The position numbers and the translations under genes are program-made. A model generated the notes under the pieces. It saw only the letters and a list, made by a program, of their open reading frames with translations, did no database searches and was not told the origin of the DNA. From positions 1 to 60,733 of the forward strand of contig MFTO01000005.1 in assembly GCA_001786835.1 (NCBI GenBank): a DNA stretch of 60,733 bases, in the 5' to 3' direction. Of this stretch, positions 47,466-58,096 are shown piece after piece. This DNA comes from Candidatus Nomurabacteria bacterium RIFCSPHIGHO2_01_FULL_40_20. GTDB lineage: Bacteria > Patescibacteriota > Minisyncoccia > Phycocordibacterales > UBA9973. Position 1 is the first letter of the stretch; every line of letters starts with the position of its first letter.

Positions 47466-47921
47466 ATGGCCGTCAAAGAAACAAAAACAAAGAAAACAGT
47501 CTCAACCAAGACGAAGACTTTAAAAGTTGGGGTAAAAGTTCTCAAAGAACCGAAGTCTGCCGAACAGCAAGAGAAAAAAGAAAAAAAATCTGCTCGCGCG
47601 GGAGGGGAAGTGGGAGAAGTGGTTTTGCGCATACGTGTACGAGCGTATGAAAGTAAAATTCTAGACGCTTCTGTAAAACAAATAATTGATACCGCGCTTC
47701 GCTATGACGCCAAGATTGTTGGTCCTACTCCGCTTCCAACCGAGATAAAAAAATACACGGTCAATCGCGCATCTTTTGTTTACAAAAACACTCGAGAACA
47801 ATTTGAAATCAGAGTGCACAAAAGGTTGATTGATATCATTAATCCAAACGCCAAAACTGTGGAAGCGCTTACAAATATGTCTTTGCCTTCTGGAGTGGAT
47901 ATTGATGTAAAAATGTTATGA
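47466..47921 (+). CDS. rpsJ: 30S ribosomal protein S10 with a Lys-rich N-terminal extension of about 50 aa
   Basis: Core LRIRVRAYESKILDASVKQI...GPTPLPTEIKKYTVNRASFVYKNTREQFE. Confidence 0.93.
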   Translation: MAVKETKTKKTVSTKTKTLKVGVKVLKEPKSAEQQEKKEKKSARAGGEVGEVVLRIRVRAYESKILDASVKQIIDTALRYDAKIVGPTPLPTEIKKYTVNRASFVYKNTREQFEIRVHKRLIDIINPNAKTVEALTNMSLPSGVDIDVKML

Positions 47922-47924
47922 GAA

Positions 47925-48046
47925 ATTAATGAGTGAAACGAATATAATTTCCATACCCTGTTAAATAACTTTTGCAAAGCAAAAGTTGGAATCAAAAGAT
48001 TTCATTTAACAGGGTGTAGATTTTAAAAAACTTCACTTCGTTCAGT
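47925..48046 (+). repeat. Structured inverted-repeat element, copy 1, in the rpsJ-rplC spacer
   Basis: P1 ACCCTGTTAAAT/ATTTAACAGGGT, P2 AACTTTTGC-aaa-GCAAAAGTT, P3 GGAATC-aaaa-GATTTC; homologous to 56903-57105. Confidence 0.8.
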
Positions 48047-48059
48047 TAAAAAAATCAAC

Positions 48060-53578: not shown

Positions 53579-53950
53579 ATGATTCAAGACGGAAGTTTAG
53601 TAAAAATAACAGACAATGCCGGTGGTATCATCGGGAAAGTTTTCAAAGTGCCGGGTAGCGCGGCTAAAAGATACGCAACACTCGGCGAGATTGTTATTAT
53701 CTCAGTGAAAACCGCAAGCCCTAGAAAGGGAGTTAAGAAGAAAGATGTGCATCAGGCCGTCGTCGTTCGAACTCGTAATGCATATCGTAGGCGCGATGGG
53801 TCTTATATTCGTTTTGATGACAATGCTGTAGTGATACTCGAAAAAGACAAGCTTGACCCTAAGGCTGGACGTGTTTTCGGACCAATCCCGAGGGAGCTTG
53901 CGGAGAAAGGATTTCAAAAGATTATTTCTTTAGCGCCCGAAGTAATATAA
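53579..53950 (+). CDS. rplN: 50S ribosomal protein L14
   Basis: MIQDGSLVKITDNAG...AVVVRTR...IRFDDNAVV. Confidence 0.97.
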   Translation: MIQDGSLVKITDNAGGIIGKVFKVPGSAAKRYATLGEIVIISVKTASPRKGVKKKDVHQAVVVRTRNAYRRRDGSYIRFDDNAVVILEKDKLDPKAGRVFGPIPRELAEKGFQKIISLAPEVI

Positions 53951-54023
53951 TAGTTAACAGATTAGAGATTAAAGTTGGCAGAATTTTGTATAAACTTAAA
54001 TCTTAAATCTAATATCTTACAAT

Positions 54024-54239
54024 ATGAAATTAAAAAAAGGGGACAATATAATAGTGCTTACTGGGAAAGAGAAAGGTAAAAAGGGTAAAGTTATCCGTTC
54101 TTTGCCGAAGGAGAACAAAGTGGTGGTGGAAGGATTAAACACGGTAAAAAAACACCAACGTCCTAGAAAGTCGAACGAAAAGGGTAGTGTGATAGACGTC
54201 GCTATGCCGATACATGTTTCCAATGTTAAGAAAGTTTAA
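54024..54239 (+). CDS. rplX: 50S ribosomal protein L24, unusually short (71 aa)
   Basis: KOW motif MKLKKGDNIIVLTGKEKGKKGKV...VEGLNTVKKHQRP...IHVSNV; ends soon afterwards. Confidence 0.92.
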   Translation: MKLKKGDNIIVLTGKEKGKKGKVIRSLPKENKVVVEGLNTVKKHQRPRKSNEKGSVIDVAMPIHVSNVKKV

Positions 54240-54250
54240 AAGATACTAAG

Positions 54251-54817
54251 ATGAAAAATCTAACTGTAAAAGAAAAAGAATCGGAAGCGTTTGAAAAAAT
54301 GAAAGGCGTTTTCGGCTACAAAAATAAAATGGCTTCGCCCAAGCTAAAGAAAGCGGTGTTAAACGTGGGCACCGGCACAGCTATCAAAAAAGACAAAAAT
54401 AAGAATGACACTATAGGAGAGCGCTTGGTAAAAATTACCGGACAAAAGCCGGTTCTTAAGGGTGCCAAGAAATCCATTGCTTCTTTCAAAGTTCGTCAAG
54501 GAGACCCAATCGGGGTAGTGGTGACCATCCGCGGAGCGCGGATGTATGCTTTCTTGGAAAAACTTTTAAACGTTGCGCTTCCTCGTACCAAAGACTTTCG
54601 TGGTATCAACCGCTCTGCGGTGGACAGCATTGGCAACCTTACCTTAGGCATCAAAGAGCACACTATTTTCCCAGAAACCGCGGACGAAGACATCAAAGAT
54701 GTTTTTGGACTCGCTATCACTATCGTCTCAACTGCTAAAAACAAAAAAGAAGGCATGGTCTTCTTTGAACTCCTCGGCGTCCCATTCAAAAAGGAGGAAG
54801 AAAAGAAGAAGAAATAA
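54251..54817 (+). CDS. rplE: 50S ribosomal protein L5
   Basis: Operon order; TGQKPVLKGAKKSIASFKVRQGDPIG, FRGIN, GIKEHTIFPE. Confidence 0.97.
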   Translation: MKNLTVKEKESEAFEKMKGVFGYKNKMASPKLKKAVLNVGTGTAIKKDKNKNDTIGERLVKITGQKPVLKGAKKSIASFKVRQGDPIGVVVTIRGARMYAFLEKLLNVALPRTKDFRGINRSAVDSIGNLTLGIKEHTIFPETADEDIKDVFGLAITIVSTAKNKKEGMVFFELLGVPFKKEEEKKKK

Positions 54818-54855
54818 AATCTAGCTCTTTGTTTTTACTTTTTTAATCTATGTAG

Positions 54856-54861
54856 TATAAT
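54856..54861 (+). promoter_or_regulatory. -10 box TATAAT, 6 nt upstream of the first gene of the inserted island
   Basis: TAGTATAAT-AAATTC-ATG read directly. Confidence 0.55.
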
Positions 54862-54867
54862 AAATTC

Positions 54868-55365
54868 ATGAAAAATCCATTTGAGGGTATGGGCAGGAAG
54901 ATGCGCAATACATTAGTTGGGGTAGTCGCCTTAGGCGCTACGGCAGGGACTATAGAAGCTCAAACCACTTTGCCGAACAAAGAAGGGATGGAGATAAATG
55001 TGACTGAGAAAACTTCTTGGGCGAAAGATGTCTTAGTAAGTGCGCAGTCTGAGATAAAACATATATCCACGAAAGAAGATTTAATAGCTTTCCAAACTAA
55101 ACATCTAAAACCTTATTTAGATAAAATCGGTATGCTTTCAAGTGGTGCGGAAGAGAAAGCTCACTATTCTATTGAAGACTACAAAGCGATTCTAGAACAG
55201 CTTAAAGCTTTAGGGGAAATATTTAATGGACTAGAAAGCAATATACCAAATTCACAAAGAAACAAAAATTACGATTACTTGATAAGACAACTGACTAGCA
55301 AATCTTCCTACAAGGGTCATAACGACTCAGAGAAGATTTATAACTATTTTGATAATAAGGAATAG
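54868..55365 (+). CDS. Hypothetical secreted protein (165 aa), island gene A
   Basis: Signal-like RNTLVGVVALGATAGTIEAQ, then a predicted helical Lys/Glu-rich body; no motif recognised. Confidence 0.55.
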   Translation: MKNPFEGMGRKMRNTLVGVVALGATAGTIEAQTTLPNKEGMEINVTEKTSWAKDVLVSAQSEIKHISTKEDLIAFQTKHLKPYLDKIGMLSSGAEEKAHYSIEDYKAILEQLKALGEIFNGLESNIPNSQRNKNYDYLIRQLTSKSSYKGHNDSEKIYNYFDNKE

Positions 55366-55479
55366 AGTCTATTGGATTTGTGTTTTTTATGATATAATTA
55401 AAGCGTAAAAAAGAACGAAGGTTTTTATTAAAGTTTGCTATAATAAACGTTATTAACGTATGTGGTCACTATATAAAAT

Positions 55480-55665
55480 ATGGATAAAAAGGCTCTTTTT
55501 TTAAAGACATATGCTAATTTACCACAAGCGTCACGAGAAGAAATTGTCGCTGTGGTGGGTGGTGAACCGTATACTTGGCAATCTGCAAAGCTAGAGATAG
55601 AGCATGATACTTCTATTGGGAAAGGCATTTTAGAACTTTTGGTAAATTTAAAGATACTATCATGA
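55480..55665 (+). CDS. Hypothetical small protein (61 aa), island gene B
   Basis: ORF with ATGA stop/start overlap to gene C; weak similarity to gene C. Confidence 0.45.
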   Translation: MDKKALFLKTYANLPQASREEIVAVVGGEPYTWQSAKLEIEHDTSIGKGILELLVNLKILS

Positions 55666-55919
55666 ATGATAAAAAAGAAAATTCTATAGAAGATATTATT
55701 TTAGATCCAGAACTTAGTGAACAATTAAAAAATCTAGTTCTTGAGCGTGTTAGCATAATGCCAGATACATTACGAATGTCTGTTGGTTCAGATGAACTTA
55801 CAAAAAATGATGTATTAAAACACGTTAAAGAGGGTGATGATATTGGTAATCAGATAATGGAGATGGAACTAGGATTTCTCCGTGATTTAGCAAGTGGCGC
55901 AGTGTATTCTTATGAGTAA
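55662..55919 (+). CDS. Hypothetical small acidic protein (85 aa), island gene C
   Basis: Overlaps gene B (4 nt) and gene D (8 nt), implying translational coupling. Confidence 0.5.
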   Translation: MNDKKENSIEDIILDPELSEQLKNLVLERVSIMPDTLRMSVGSDELTKNDVLKHVKEGDDIGNQIMEMELGFLRDLASGAVYSYE

Positions 55920-56517
55920 ATCAATTCTTGTTACACGTCCAGACCATGACCTTATAACAAAATATTTTTATATTTGGAGTCAGGAAATTGTTGATTTAGC
56001 TAAAAGTAAGAATATAGAAGTTTACGATCTAAAAGGTAAAAAATCAAACGAAAAAGAATTTATCAGCTATATGAGTATTCATTGTCCTTCAATTGTTTTT
56101 TTGAATGGGCATGGTAGTGCGAACATTTTTACTGGATATGACAATCAACCAATAATTGATTCAGATTCTATTTTAAAGGATGCCATAATATATGCTCGAA
56201 GTTGTGAAGTAGGACAAAATCTTGGCTTCAAACTTATAAAGAACGGCGCAAAGACGTTTATTGGCTATAAAAGAAAATTTTTTTGTGGATATACACCCGA
56301 AAAAATAACAAAACCACTCGAAGACAATATTGCCGGTCTTTTTCTAAAACCATCAAACTTAGTTGTGTCAACACTTCTGAAAAATAATAACGCTGAAGAA
56401 GCACATAATCGATCAAGAGGGCAAATGTATAAGAATTTTAGAAGAATGGTTTCAAGTACTGCGACATTTGAAGAATGGAGAACCCATTTTCGGTGGGTTT
56501 TCTATTTATTTATTTGA
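55912..56517 (+). CDS. Hypothetical protein with a caspase/legumain-like His...Cys arrangement (about 201 aa), island gene D
   Basis: Alternating beta/alpha pattern with IVFLNGHGS and IIYARSCEVG after consecutive predicted strands. Start chosen at 55912 (MSKSILV) rather than 55894. Confidence 0.5.
   Translation: MSKSILVTRPDHDLITKYFYIWSQEIVDLAKSKNIEVYDLKGKKSNEKEFISYMSIHCPSIVFLNGHGSANIFTGYDNQPIIDSDSILKDAIIYARSCEVGQNLGFKLIKNGAKTFIGYKRKFFCGYTPEKITKPLEDNIAGLFLKPSNLVVSTLLKNNNAEEAHNRSRGQMYKNFRRMVSSTATFEEWRTHFRWVFYLFI
56481..56512 (+). terminator. Rho-independent terminator at the 3' end of island gene D
   Basis: AACCCA-ttttcgg-TGGGTT followed by TTCTATTTATTTATTT. Confidence 0.65.
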
Positions 56518-56540
56518 CTATTTAGCTTAGATTTGATAAG

Positions 56541-56686
56541 ATGAGCAAGTCCTAGAAATGGAGCTGATCTGTGTTTCTCCTCCGACGCTCTGCAAAAGCC
56601 AGAGGATCGGAGCAAATACATAAGATATCGCCCATAAGGACAGAATCTAAGGTATGGCGCCCCGACGCAAAAGTCGGGATGCTCAT
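56541..56686. ncRNA. Candidate structured RNA or long leader upstream of rpsN (function unknown)
   Basis: Closing helix ATGAGCA/TGCTCAT, GTCCT/AGGAC, nested hairpin CTCCGA-cg-CTCTG-caaaagc-CAGAG-ga-TCGGAG (56580-56612), hairpin CCCGAC-gcaaaa-GTCGGG (56661-56678). Looks more GC-rich than its flanks by eye. Confidence 0.35.
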
Positions 56687-56715
56687 AAATTATAGTCATT
56701 AACATTCCTTAATTT

Positions 56716-56901
56716 ATGGCAAAAACATCAGTCATAGCGCGAAACAATAAGAAAAAGAAATTTTCTACTCGGAAGAAGAACCGCTGTTTTCGTTGTGCCC
56801 GAGGGAAAGGTTATATGCGCGACTTTGGTCTTTGTCGCATCTGTTTTAGAGAATTAGCCAATGAAGGCAATCTGCCGGGAGTTAGAAAATCAAGCTGGTA
56901 A
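56716..56901 (+). CDS. rpsN: 30S ribosomal protein S14, zinc-binding type Z (61 aa)
   Basis: [25 protein letters not shown]...LPGVRKSSW. Confidence 0.95.
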
Positions 56902-56902
56902 G

Positions 56903-57105
56903 TGAAATTTAATGAGTGAAACGAATATAAATTTCCTTACCTTGTTAAATAAATTTTTCAAAGAAAAATTTGTCATGTGGAAGAAATAAATAGAGATATA
57001 GAAAATAATATAAAGTATGAAAAAATTATCAACAAATAAAAAAGAACAGATAGACCACATGACATTTAACAGGGTGTCTGTTTTAATAGTCGCTTCGCTT
57101 CTTTA
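56903..57105 (+). repeat. Structured inverted-repeat element, copy 2, in the rpsN-rpsH spacer, with an expanded third helix
   Basis: P1 ACCTTGTTAAAT/ATTTAACAGGGT (one G:U pair), P2 AAATTTTTC-aaa-GAAAAATTT, P3 TGTCATGTGG...CCACATGACA (56971-57064). Confidence 0.8.
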
Positions 57106-57114
57106 AAACTAGCC

Positions 57115-57501
57115 ATGGATCCAATTTCAAACATGATAATAATGATAAAAAACGGTTCTACCGCAGGCAAAGCGACAGTATCTTTTCCATACTCAAAAAT
57201 TAAAAACGCGGTAGCCTTATGTCTTCAAAAAGAAGGGTATGTCAAAGACGTCGCAAAAAAAGTTAAAAAAGACCATCCGGTTTTAGAAATTGAATTGGTA
57301 TATACAGACAAGAAGCCAAAAATTTCCGGCGTAGAAAGAATTTCAAAACAATCCAGACGTGTTTATTTCGGGATGCGCGATATCCATACAGTTCTAGGTG
57401 GTAAAGGCGTTCTTGTGCTCTCAACTCCAAAGGGGATACTCTCGGGGCGCGACGCAAGGCGCGAACAAGTTGGAGGCGAAGCATTGTTTAAAATTTGGTA
57501 G
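57115..57501 (+). CDS. rpsH: 30S ribosomal protein S8
   Basis: MDPISNMIIMIKNG...; GGEALFKIW C-terminus. Confidence 0.96.
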   Translation: MDPISNMIIMIKNGSTAGKATVSFPYSKIKNAVALCLQKEGYVKDVAKKVKKDHPVLEIELVYTDKKPKISGVERISKQSRRVYFGMRDIHTVLGGKGVLVLSTPKGILSGRDARREQVGGEALFKIW

Positions 57502-57562
57502 AGAAGTTAGTTATAAAGTTGAAAGTTATAAAGTTTATAAAGAAAATTAGAAATCAAAATAC

Positions 57563-58096
57563 ATGTCAAGAATCGGCAAAAAAGAAATAACAATACCTAA
57601 AGGCGTGACCGTCATGAAAGACGGTGGCAGTTTAAAGGTGACAGGTCCAAAAGGAACCCTATCAAAAGTTTTCCGTGATGATGTAGTGTTCAATATAGGC
57701 GCTGACTTGATAACCCTAAGCATAAAGCGCAACGATAAATTTTCCAAAGCTCTTTGGGGTACTTATGCTTCCCACATTGTAAATATGATAAAGGGCGTAG
57801 AGACCCCCTATGTAAAAAAACTTATTTTAGAAGGAGTTGGGTTCAAGTCTGATGTGAAAGGCAAAGAACTTCAACTGGCGCTTGGATTTTCTCATCCAGT
57901 TGTGGTTAAAATTCCTGAAACGATTACAGTTACCGCAGAGAAAAACAATATTACAGTCATAGGTATTGATAAAGAGTTGGTTGGAAGTTTTACGGCGGGA
58001 ATTCGCGCGCTCAAGAAGCCAGAGCCTTACAAAGGTAAAGGTTTTCGTTATGAAGGCGAAGTTATCAGACGTAAACAGGGTAAGAAAACTGTTTAG
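57563..58096 (+). CDS. rplF: 50S ribosomal protein L6
   Basis: MSRIGKKEITIPKGVTV...; KKPEPYKGKGFRYEGE. Confidence 0.97.
   Translation: MSRIGKKEITIPKGVTVMKDGGSLKVTGPKGTLSKVFRDDVVFNIGADLITLSIKRNDKFSKALWGTYASHIVNMIKGVETPYVKKLILEGVGFKSDVKGKELQLALGFSHPVVVKIPETITVTAEKNNITVIGIDKELVGSFTAGIRALKKPEPYKGKGFRYEGEVIRRKQGKKTV

Follow-up and report, generated by a model that had tools for sequence, protein, structure and literature searches.

Results

Four genes between rplE and rpsN

We examined the spc ribosomal-protein operon in a 60,733-nucleotide (nt) stretch of DNA, hereafter the window, from Candidatus Nomurabacteria bacterium RIFCSPHIGHO2_01_FULL_40_20 (assembly GCA_001786835.1, contig MFTO01000005.1). 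In this window rplE and rpsN lie 1,898 nt apart, and the list of open reading frames (ORFs) and the raw sequence agree on four intact, co-oriented ORFs, here called A to D, inside that spacing (Table 1). An earlier reading of the same DNA, which we refer to as the original prediction, had described ~1.9 kb with four ORFs at this place as a single autonomous island, extra relative to the canonical spc operon. The extent of the insert was borne out, with its features at or near the places where that reading had put them, and so was the view that this DNA is an addition to the canonical operon. Comparison with related loci gave a different picture of its composition. B, C and D form a self-contained, horizontally mobile three-gene cassette, A is separate, and the promoter and structured leader ahead of rpsN belong to the junction itself. 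Taken together with a proteolytic role for the cassette, this is the best overall explanation that we can offer, and we hold it with slightly better than even confidence.

Genes B, C and D are tightly coupled, with a 4-nt overlap (ATGA) between B and C and an 8-nt overlap (ATGAGTAA) between C and D. The G+C content is ~0.31 across the insert, compared with ~0.40-0.47 in the flanking ribosomal-protein genes. None of the four proteins gave a significant match in Pfam, NCBIfam, PADLOC or PHROGs, where we found sub-threshold noise only (DUF1848, LuxS, NucT and PbeC); the original prediction had likewise recognised no family for any of them. Measured against the related locus L002 (L numbers designate loci and contigs, P numbers proteins), the ratio of nonsynonymous to synonymous substitution rates (dN/dS) was 0.065 for B, 0.116 for C and 0.143 for D, with a range of 0.065-0.073 for B. 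Since these values indicate purifying selection, B, C and D are real and constrained genes, as had been supposed, and the description of a tightly coupled module of no known family that ends in an enzyme-like gene still stands.

Table 1. Genes and other features of the window between rplE and rpsH, in order of position (position 1 is the first letter of the window).
Feature	Position	Strand	Basis and remarks
rplE (uL5), last gene ahead of the variable junction	54251..54817	+	ORF; homologues in related loci with Pfam Ribosomal_L5 and L5_C
Promoter-like TTTACT-16-TATAAT	54834..54861	+	Consensus scan, 10/12 matches; 6 nt ahead of the A start codon
Gene A, 165 amino acids (aa)	54868..55365	+	ORF
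Two extended -10-like elements in the A-B spacer, TGATATAAT (55390-55398) and TGCTATAAT (55436-55444)	55390..55444	+	Direct sequence reading
Gene B, 61 aa	55480..55665	+	ORF
Gene C, 85 aa	55662..55919	+	ORF
Gene D, 201 aa	55912..56517	+	ORF; counted from the ATG that homologues use
Intrinsic-terminator-like hairpin and T-rich tail	56473..56507	+	Scan; overlaps the aberrant D end and immediately precedes the rpsN promoter
Internal promoter of the rpsN-rpsH... unit, TTGACT-N14-TG-N-TAAGAT (extended -10; TTGACT-17-TAAGAT)	56514..56542	+	Scan and conservation
Non-coding gap between D and rpsN, 198 nt	56518..56715		
Structured 5' leader of rpsN	56543..56656	+	Covariation, covariance model; core G56566-A-U-C56569 / G56624-A-U-A-U-C56629
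Secondary insertion of ~60 nt at the rpsN start	56657..56715	+	Duplicated TATGGC at the flanks (56653-56658, 56715-20), GC-rich hairpin; shared only by L020 and L029
rpsN (uS14, 61-aa zinc-ribbon type)	56716..56901	+	ORF; 82% identity in L001, L002 and L007
Gap between rpsN and rpsH, 213 nt	56902..57114		rpsH starts at 57115
Repeated intergenic element, 213 nt, rpsN-rpsH spacer, separate from the insert	56902..57114	+	Second copy at 47922-48059, rpsJ-rplC spacer

A mobile B-C-D cassette and a separate gene A

We followed the genes by looking up the contigs of homologues and by searching every fetched locus with the window proteins (tblastn). Of the 47 close homologues of D, nearly all are ~212 aa long, unannotated and from the Candidate Phyla Radiation (CPR)/Patescibacteria, and in the homologue contigs a B gene (61-65 aa) and then a C gene (82-85 aa) stand ahead of each D gene. 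The B-C-D adjacency was kept in every one of ~13 independent contexts, which span CPR bacteria, DPANN archaea and metagenome-assembled genomes (MAGs) of Saprospiraceae. In the Nomurabacteria loci L001, L002 and L007 the trio occupies the same site between rplE and rpsN, with a dUTPase instead of A, and in L034 it stands directly after rplE. Elsewhere its neighbours are an N6/N4 methyltransferase and a MutH-like nuclease (Giovannonibacteria, L003-5), RhuM and PIF1 (L006), an ABC transporter and MiaB (L093), NUDIX, Rce1 and EamA, with Fic and AbiEi near (L095), DUF218 and a glycosyltransferase (L097), or, on a 2.96-Mb Saprospiraceae MAG contig (L092), Phage_rep_O and AAA_22, both weak Pfam matches. 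Recognisable B, C and D genes also occur in a Woesearchaeote, where L1 and L10 genes adjoin them (L010), and in an Aenigmarchaeote (L011). The scan of species representatives that added these two found five loci; it used only two peptide patterns, so that this number is not an estimate of prevalence.

The limits of the cassette are sharp. Between loci, sequence similarity begins at the B start codon and ends at the D stop codon, and the flanks are unrelated. No integrase, transposase, terminal repeats or target-site duplication was found flanking the cassette. We conclude that B-C-D is a self-contained, horizontally mobile unit of three genes. Gene A behaves differently in this survey: exact copies were detected by tblastn on 18 contigs of the same population and at no other fetched locus. 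Its product begins with a basic stretch, followed by a hydrophobic segment (residues 13-31) and then by IEA|Q, and is probably a secreted protein. A single-sequence search of the PDB gave no credible match for A, and PADLOC-DB 2.0 returned one sub-threshold match (PbeC, E 0.015). A is population-specific cargo in the first part of the slot, unrelated to the trio.

These distributions bear directly on the proposal that A, B, C and D are one autonomous island, recently inserted as a unit together with its own promoters, terminator and structured 3' RNA. The ORFs are co-oriented and compact and have a lower G+C content than their flanks, promoter-like motifs precede A and B, a terminator follows D, and the A-B-C-D arrangement recurs in 18 contigs. 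Those contigs, however, belong to a single population and encode 100% identical proteins, and A is missing from all other trio loci, its place at the same site being taken by the dUTPase or by nothing. The terminator, promoter and leader are present in insert-free relatives. Sequence divergence tells against a recent arrival as well: the window shares 80% identity with L034 in rplE, 78% in D and 84% in B, and 74% with L002 in rplE, 73% in D and 90% in B, which fits co-divergence of rplE and D. In the three lineages that hold the trio here, this parallel between trio and rplE fits long residence and not recent insertion. The closest rplE relatives, L012 and L019 (84-85% identity), have an empty junction. 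The version with a single four-gene island is largely refuted, and we regard it as barely credible.

Two further observations concern the outlying members of the family. In the Aenigmarchaeote locus (L011 800-1439) the D homologue is divided between two frames that overlap (800-961 and 831-1439), which suggests a frameshift or a pseudogene. On megabase contigs assigned to Saprospiraceae (Bacteroidota) we found CPR-type trios at 76-88% identity to that of the window; one is L092 4569-5582 (JADJTC010000009.1), in which D is C-terminally short (193 aa), and P0203/P0228 lie on a 2.47-Mb contig. Such trios could have crossed between phyla recently, belong to a prophage or stem from a chimeric assembly.

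A conserved promoter and variable cargo at the junction

We fetched 80 related metagenome loci by means of the window rplE (72-85% identity) and sought rpsN in each of them. The spacer from the rplE stop codon to the rpsN start codon measured 132-307 nt in 29 loci and 435-2,217 nt in 23, while several further loci had no rpsN within the available sequence. Comparison of this junction in related genomes, which had been proposed as a check, thus yielded both empty and filled sites. The premise that rplE is normally followed directly by rpsN does not apply in this clade, where the minimum spacer is 132 nt. The pattern TTGAC(T/A)-N14-TGnTAnnAT was present in all 56 loci holding both genes (56/56) and was followed in each by a leader of 102-270 nt. 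In the 29 short-spacer ("empty") loci its -35 box starts 1-77 nt past the rplE stop codon, and in the long-spacer loci that box is preceded by the whole of the additional DNA. A terminator-like hairpin and T-run stand directly ahead of TTGACT in L012, L019, L029 and L088 as well.

Promoter-like sites by themselves prove nothing here: in 53900-57600, an AT-rich region, they were unenriched compared with shuffles (14 vs 11.2 +/- 2.7). Terminator-like sites in the same interval were enriched (7 vs 2.2 +/- 1.5). The original prediction had given the insert its own promoters and a terminator at 56481-56512. Promoter-like sequences are indeed present, and a hairpin with a T-rich tail does follow D, but our scan places the terminator at 56473-56507, and it is the hairpin that immediately precedes the rpsN promoter, to which a truncated D has become fused (see below). 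The two elements in the A-B spacer fit the TGnTAnnAT extended -10 form of the rpsN promoter of this clade and constitute a candidate promoter for B-C-D.

Cargo was present between rplE and rpsN in 23/52 scored relatives, so the insertion is no singular intrusion into an inviolate operon, and the junction of this clade always has its promoter and leader. The commonest cargo, in ~19 loci from L014 to L089 (for example L036 1660-2471 and L056 4598-5403), is a membrane protein of ~100-120 aa paired with a type IV pilin-like N_methyl protein (GFTLIELLVV). The membrane protein carries the motif EI-KALKEFE...KYSGG-IK...A-YVLLG, and in some cases the pair is joined by a third gene, for a small membrane protein (MIKFIHKK...). 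Other cargo comprises HicA with a HicB-like partner and an 882-aa surface protein (Ig-like), an AAA_14-DUF4143 ATPase, the dUTPase and B-C-D itself. In L020 (4697-5514) the slot holds genes for three proteins: DUF5678 (64 aa), a retropepsin-like Asp_protease_2 (107 aa) and one like the MazE/AbrB antitoxins (64 aa). This is the second mini-module with a protease in the hotspot.

Like other accessory-gene hotspots and defence islands, this one combines conserved flanks (rplE upstream; the promoter, leader and rpsN downstream) with highly variable cargo. It differs from known hotspots in lying inside the ribosomal-protein super-operon and in the absence of any integrase, tRNA, attachment (att) site or target duplication, and its inserts are small (0.3 to >4 kb). 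With their own promoter, the downstream ribosomal-protein genes would not suffer a polar effect from DNA placed between the rplE stop codon and the -35 box. The slot would then be transcriptionally neutral for those genes, and for this reason may have become a parking place for accessory genes.

A structured leader that resembles the S8 binding site

On either strand, the stretch 56510-56720 has a far more stable predicted fold than its shuffles (z = -4.6 and -4.7; 0/200 shuffles). The original prediction had counted these ~200 structured nt as part of the island; they turn out to consist of the conserved rpsN promoter and leader and a small secondary insertion. An alignment of 36 leaders, comprising two sequence variants, describes a long irregular hairpin of ~110 nt in which 93.2% of cells are paired, compared with 80.5% in shuffles. 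We counted 109 double-change cells (40 in shuffles) and obtained a covariation score of 0.464, against 0.212 in shuffles and <=0.13 in slid registers. Compensatory changes occur in 11/19 pairs; pair 30-102 is AU in 19 sequences, GC in 17 and broken in none. A covariance model built from the alignment (R1) scored 69.9 bits at 56540-56656 of the window. All 58 related spc loci that extend far enough, ~22 of them outside the seed, gave exactly one strong plus-strand match, located ahead of rpsN, and the non-spc loci gave none. The leader is so far restricted to a Nomurabacteria-like clade.

Several other candidates were set aside. Only tRNAs reached the gathering threshold when the window was searched with Rfam 15, and in 54700-57200, with matches admitted up to E = 10, nothing scored better than E = 1.6, the value of an rli52 match that merely overlies the terminator; a match to Alpha_RBS (E 9) was noise. 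A second R1 match at 47815-47955 (E 0.94) is not a leader and adjoins a copy of the repeated intergenic element described below. A register proposed by RNAalifold, which pairs AUC with GAU and has no bulge, was superseded by the bulged register, which adds a perfectly covarying pair.

In the bulged register the invariant core of the leader reads 5'-R-A-U-C / 5'-G-A-U-A-U-Y and is made up of the pairs C-G and U-A, a bulged U-A, and the pairs A-U and R-Y, the last of which is AU in 19 sequences and GC in 17. We compared it with helix 21 of the E. coli 16S rRNA. There, A596-G597-U598-C599 faces G639-A640-U641-A642-C643-U644, with the pairs C599-G639 and U598-A640, the bulged U641 and A642, and the pairs G597-C643 and A596-U644. 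A642 is the invariant base recognised by ribosomal protein S8, and the 596-644 pair varies between species (PMC4176348). The equivalent of A642 is invariant in the leader and that of U641 is conserved in >=90% of the sequences. Written out, the two cores are GAUACU / AGUC in E. coli and GAUAUY / RAUC in the leader; both have a two-base 3' bulge U-A with the invariant A, followed by two Watson-Crick pairs, and they match apart from the equivalent of 597-643, which is A-U in the leader.

Since rpsH lies in the unit behind this promoter, the most economical reading is that the leader is an S8 autoregulatory site, which we consider fairly probable. S8, encoded two genes downstream, would then repress its own transcription unit. 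The E. coli spc operator of S8 offers a parallel, being likewise a structured RNA within the spc operon upstream of a set of genes that includes rpsH, and S8 is the known spc regulator there (PMC4176348). In contrast to that operator, which lies at the start of rplE, the leader precedes rpsN, forms a genuine 5' leader by virtue of having a promoter of its own, and has an extra conserved UUUCUCCU/AGAAAA loop. Among the 20 new leaders of Eckert and Weinberg (2020) none is assigned to S8 or S14.

The same features can be read in another way, namely that the leader binds S14, L6, L18 or S5, or that it is only a stabilising or processing structure. The A-U in place of the G-C that S8 contacts in known complexes would be accommodated by such a reading and weighs against S8, as does the pairing of the equivalent of position 595, and the second invariant internal loop has no counterpart in helix 21. 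Against it stand the C-G, U-A, bulged N-A architecture with its invariant A642 equivalent, the presence of rpsH in the controlled unit, and the regulation of spc by S8 in E. coli. We rate these alternatives as unlikely and retain S8 autoregulation as the preferred reading of the leader.

Protein D has a clan-CD-like fold and an invariant His-Gly and Cys

An exhaustive profile search with D, run at E <= 1e-3, retrieved 2,228 representatives (50% identity), and the best-scoring 150 of the 2,228 are nearly all standalone proteins of ~215 aa. D is basic, with an isoelectric point (pI) of 9.3 and a charge of +8. Its AlphaFold2 (AF2) model has a predicted local distance difference test (pLDDT) score of 89.7 and a predicted template modelling score (pTM) of 0.87. 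When this model was compared with the PDB by Foldseek, the five best matches were all clan-CD proteases, with probability 1.00 and template modelling scores (TMq) of 0.57-0.58. SAVED-CHAT (8tl0, E 3e-4) was the best match; together with the gingipain RgpB (4ief/1cvr) and caspase-11 it accounts for ranks 1-6 and 8-10 (probability 0.97-1.00, TMq 0.48-0.58), and a C11 protease was also found.

Clan-CD peptidases carry a His-Gly and then a Cys, each after a hydrophobic beta-strand. This signature was reportedly described by Chen, Rawlings and Barrett in 1998. In the AF2 model of D, His67 (IVFLNGHG) follows a strand at 61-65 and Cys98 (AIIYARSC) follows a strand at 92-96. Among 141 representatives with 25-48% identity to the window protein, H67, G68 and C98 are the sole invariant columns. 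Sequence methods did not reach the same families: profiles of 18 and 141 sequences found no solved protease in the PDB (a match to aspartate aminotransferase was spurious), and D matched no Pfam, NCBIfam or MEROPS-type model, Peptidase_C14, CHAT, C25, C11 and C13 included. The models thus suggest a new family with a clan-CD-like fold and dyad, placed outside CHAT, C14 and C25, and we infer that D may act as a cysteine protease.

It is also conceivable that D is not a peptidase, being instead a flavodoxin- or Rossmann-like protein that binds a metal or cofactor through its His and Cys, or else a transpeptidase/ligase, a deamidase or a nucleotide-modifying enzyme. Foldseek also returned CheY-like, flavodoxin-like and azoreductase folds at E ~1e-2, no protease family was detected by sequence, and some clan-CD members, such as legumain-type ligases, GPI8 and PorU, are transpeptidases. 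The five best matches, however, are clan-CD proteases throughout, at probability 1.00, and the invariant H-G...C, each element behind a hydrophobic beta-strand, is accompanied by no other invariant position. We consider a non-peptidase function very unlikely and continue with the predicted protease.

D shares the alpha/beta fold class of clan CD, to which belong the CHAT proteins SAVED-CHAT (8tl0) and TPR-CHAT ("Craspase"), gingipain R (C25), the caspases and metacaspases (C14) and C11, and its setting in a small operon with dedicated partners recalls CHAT and gasdermin-activating proteases. In contrast to those systems it is only ~212 aa long and has no sensor, TPR, SAVED or pro-domain. Its partners are proteins of 61 and 85 aa and not gasdermin, Csx30 or another known effector, and, unlike SAVED-CHAT, the trio has no neighbourhood of clustered regularly interspaced short palindromic repeats (CRISPR) or of a cyclic-oligonucleotide-based anti-phage signalling system (CBASS).

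The D gene in the window is a 3'-truncated allele, encoding 201 aa compared with ~212. Past residue 188 it reads WRTHFRWVFYLFI and stops, where the family consensus is RYSARWLWSNLxSQVLFGD. A second protein of the same 90% cluster, P0349 (contig L103, 212 aa), shows no difference up to and including residue 188 and continues with the canonical C-terminus. The DNA of the two alleles is identical up to ...GACATTTGAAGAA and diverges completely beyond. In the window the break point is followed at once by the hairpin and T-run of the rpsN promoter region, which stand ahead of that promoter, and because this allele lost its normal 3' end, its frame runs into the terminator. The truncated form was found on 16 contigs and the intact form on 1, all from the same population. 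The conserved last 24 residues are gone, among them W, N, Q and G residues kept across the family, so that the copy in the window may be impaired or disabled.

Two small partner proteins

B is the most conserved member of the trio, with 119 homologues, all ~61 aa long, and the invariant residues F7, Y11-A-N-L-P15, R19, W33 and E39. Its AF2 model (pLDDT 94) is a helix-helix-beta-hairpin-helix-helix, for which no fold match with E < 0.8 was found in the PDB or BFVD. C (28 homologues, ~85 aa) always stands between B and D and is strongly acidic (pI 4.4, charge -10), so that its charge is complementary to that of D (-10 vs +8). Aligned by hhalign, the B and C profiles gave E 8e-4 at a probability of 24%, with the common pattern h-P-x3-R...G...T...G, and the two may be paralogues. 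Profile searches of PDB sequences gave no credible match for B or C, and a signal peptide was found in none of B, C and D. Two likenesses of C were not relied on. One was to sigma-70 region 4 of E. coli RpoE (hhalign E 1.6e-4, probability 50%, 36 columns), since the model of the related B is not a helix-turn-helix; the other was to designed double-psi beta-barrel proteins (E 4e-4), whose "GD" motif is unconserved in the family.

Outside cellular genomes, a phage contig in IMG/VR (UViG_3300002460_000115, L105 4998-5177) encodes a solitary B homologue of 59 aa with 42% identity and all invariant residues. Its neighbours are replication-O-like, HNH and NinG/Rap genes; neither C nor D adjoins it. 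A scan of IMG/VR for D found none.

Discussion

What the cassette may do

The mechanism that we favour for the cassette is a proteolytic switch of the toxin-antitoxin (TA) or abortive-infection type. D would be a minimal clan-CD cysteine endopeptidase that uses His67 and Cys98. B and C, its small and probably paralogous partners, would be made in a fixed ratio with D through translational coupling, and the acidic C, B or both might keep the basic D in check or be the substrates on which it acts. Some trigger, for instance phage infection or stress, would then free proteolysis and so arrest the cell or the invader. This proposal is our best guess, and the original prediction had already likened the layout to toxin-antitoxin, immunity or small defence modules; that likeness survives, but no known family or PADLOC model was matched. 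We put it forward tentatively and at less than even confidence.

The analogy has several sides. Type II TA and small abortive-infection modules, like the trio, consist of small, overlapping, translationally coupled genes, and type II TA systems pair an acidic small protein with a basic enzyme and have a patchy, mobile distribution. One of them, HicAB, occupies the same junction in L016, and the presence of bona fide TA genes at this hotspot in relatives can be counted as a hint of a conflict role. Further hints are the restriction-modification, RhuM/PIF1, AbiEi/Fic or Phage_rep_O genes that neighbour the trio at some loci. The lone B homologue on a phage contig forms a pattern that resembles phage decoys of host systems. 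Compared with type II TA, however, the trio has three genes and not two, no known toxin or antitoxin family in Pfam, NCBIfam or PADLOC, a protease-like enzyme in place of an RNase or kinase, and no recognised autoregulatory DNA-binding domain.

We note a number of points that weigh against the overall interpretation. The likeness of D to clan CD is at the level of the predicted fold only (TM 0.58, E 3e-4), the model of B has no fold match, and the apparent paralogy of B and C is weak at a probability of 24%. The phage-borne B is a single case. About half of the trio neighbourhoods consist of ordinary housekeeping genes, so that enrichment in defence islands is not demonstrated, and the PADLOC-DB 2.0 models match none of B, C and D. 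All promoter calls are putative and come from consensus and conservation. To these we add the departures of the leader core from helix 21.

The housekeeping neighbours lead to a different account of the trio, as a maturation system of ultra-small prokaryotes in which D processes a ribosomal protein, a pilin or another abundant substrate, B and C act as adaptors, and the whole is co-regulated with translation. The trio lies inside the spc operon in >=3 Nomurabacteria lineages and adjoins the L1 and L10 genes of the Woesearchaeote; it is under strong purifying selection, with very high conservation of B; the family is large; and the hotspot often holds pilins. On the other side, >=9 other contexts are unrelated to ribosomes or pili, the junction is empty in the closest rplE relatives, and in the Saprospiraceae MAGs the trio stands beside phage-like genes. 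The predominance of truncated D in its population (16 contigs vs 1) shows that loss of the conserved C-terminus is tolerated, and the proteins B, C and D are without a signal peptide. We find a housekeeping role distinctly unlikely and still prefer the proteolytic switch.

In its most far-reaching form, our interpretation would make B-C-D an unrecognised protease conflict system that crosses domains (CPR and DPANN), in which a latent caspase-like enzyme is held by two small paralogues of new fold and fired on infection, with the lone phage B as a decoy, while a new S8-mimic leader and the internal promoter explain the tolerated hotspot. That all of this holds at once seems to us unlikely.

Secondary insertions and initiation signals near the junction

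Other small elements lie in the same region. The ~60-nt insertion at the start of rpsN matches L020 5686-5726 and L029 4754-4793 and is absent from other leaders; it duplicates ATGGC, old and new, exactly at the rpsN start codon and makes a short, unconserved upstream ORF. At the same place a different optional 3' module (TACTTGTCCCGTTAGAAAATTATGGG...TTTTTAATGGGATG) is present in L014, L030, L039, L049, L064, L074 and L082. The rpsN-rpsH spacer, only 8-60 nt in most relatives, is filled in the window by the repeated intergenic element, of which copies 88% identical occur at L039 5000-5211 and L064 6167-6377. Its copies have common ends, TTAATGAGTGAAACGAATATAA...ACCyTGTTAAAT and ATTTAACAGGGTGT...CTTCrCTTCG, that form a long-range inverted repeat around a variable middle. 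It could be an element of the miniature inverted-repeat transposable element (MITE) kind or an operon-internal RNA structure.

The spacing of the promoter-like sequence ahead of A makes a leaderless transcript of this gene possible. We saw no Shine-Dalgarno-like purine tract upstream of rplE, B or rpsN (54240-54250, 55468-55479 and 56704-56715), and several trio loci (L002, L092) have a TATAAT-like box 4-6 nt ahead of the B start codon. These observations suggest that leaderless or Shine-Dalgarno-independent initiation is frequent in these organisms.

Implications

A literature search found no description of the trio, of a CPR rpsN leader or of cargo at the rplE-rpsN junction. An internal promoter and leader explain how a cargo hotspot can lie within the most conserved operon cluster of bacteria, and the hotspot matters wherever synteny of the spc operon is used in binning or phylogeny. 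The promoter and its leader, with a likeness to the S8 site, are a new candidate for a ribosomal leader; from this phylum no such leader had been described. The cassette family, with >2,000 clusters at 50% identity, crosses the boundary between bacteria and archaea and is represented by no model of Pfam, NCBIfam, PADLOC or PHROGs. CPR and DPANN organisms account for much of microbial diversity, and genes without annotation abound in their small genomes; for this family the invariant His-Gly...Cys of D provides a concrete handle that can be tested. If the cassette is a defence or addiction module, it would extend protease-based immunity, as represented by CHAT/Craspase and the gasdermin activators, to the smallest known cells, and it would do so with the smallest clan-CD scaffold yet.

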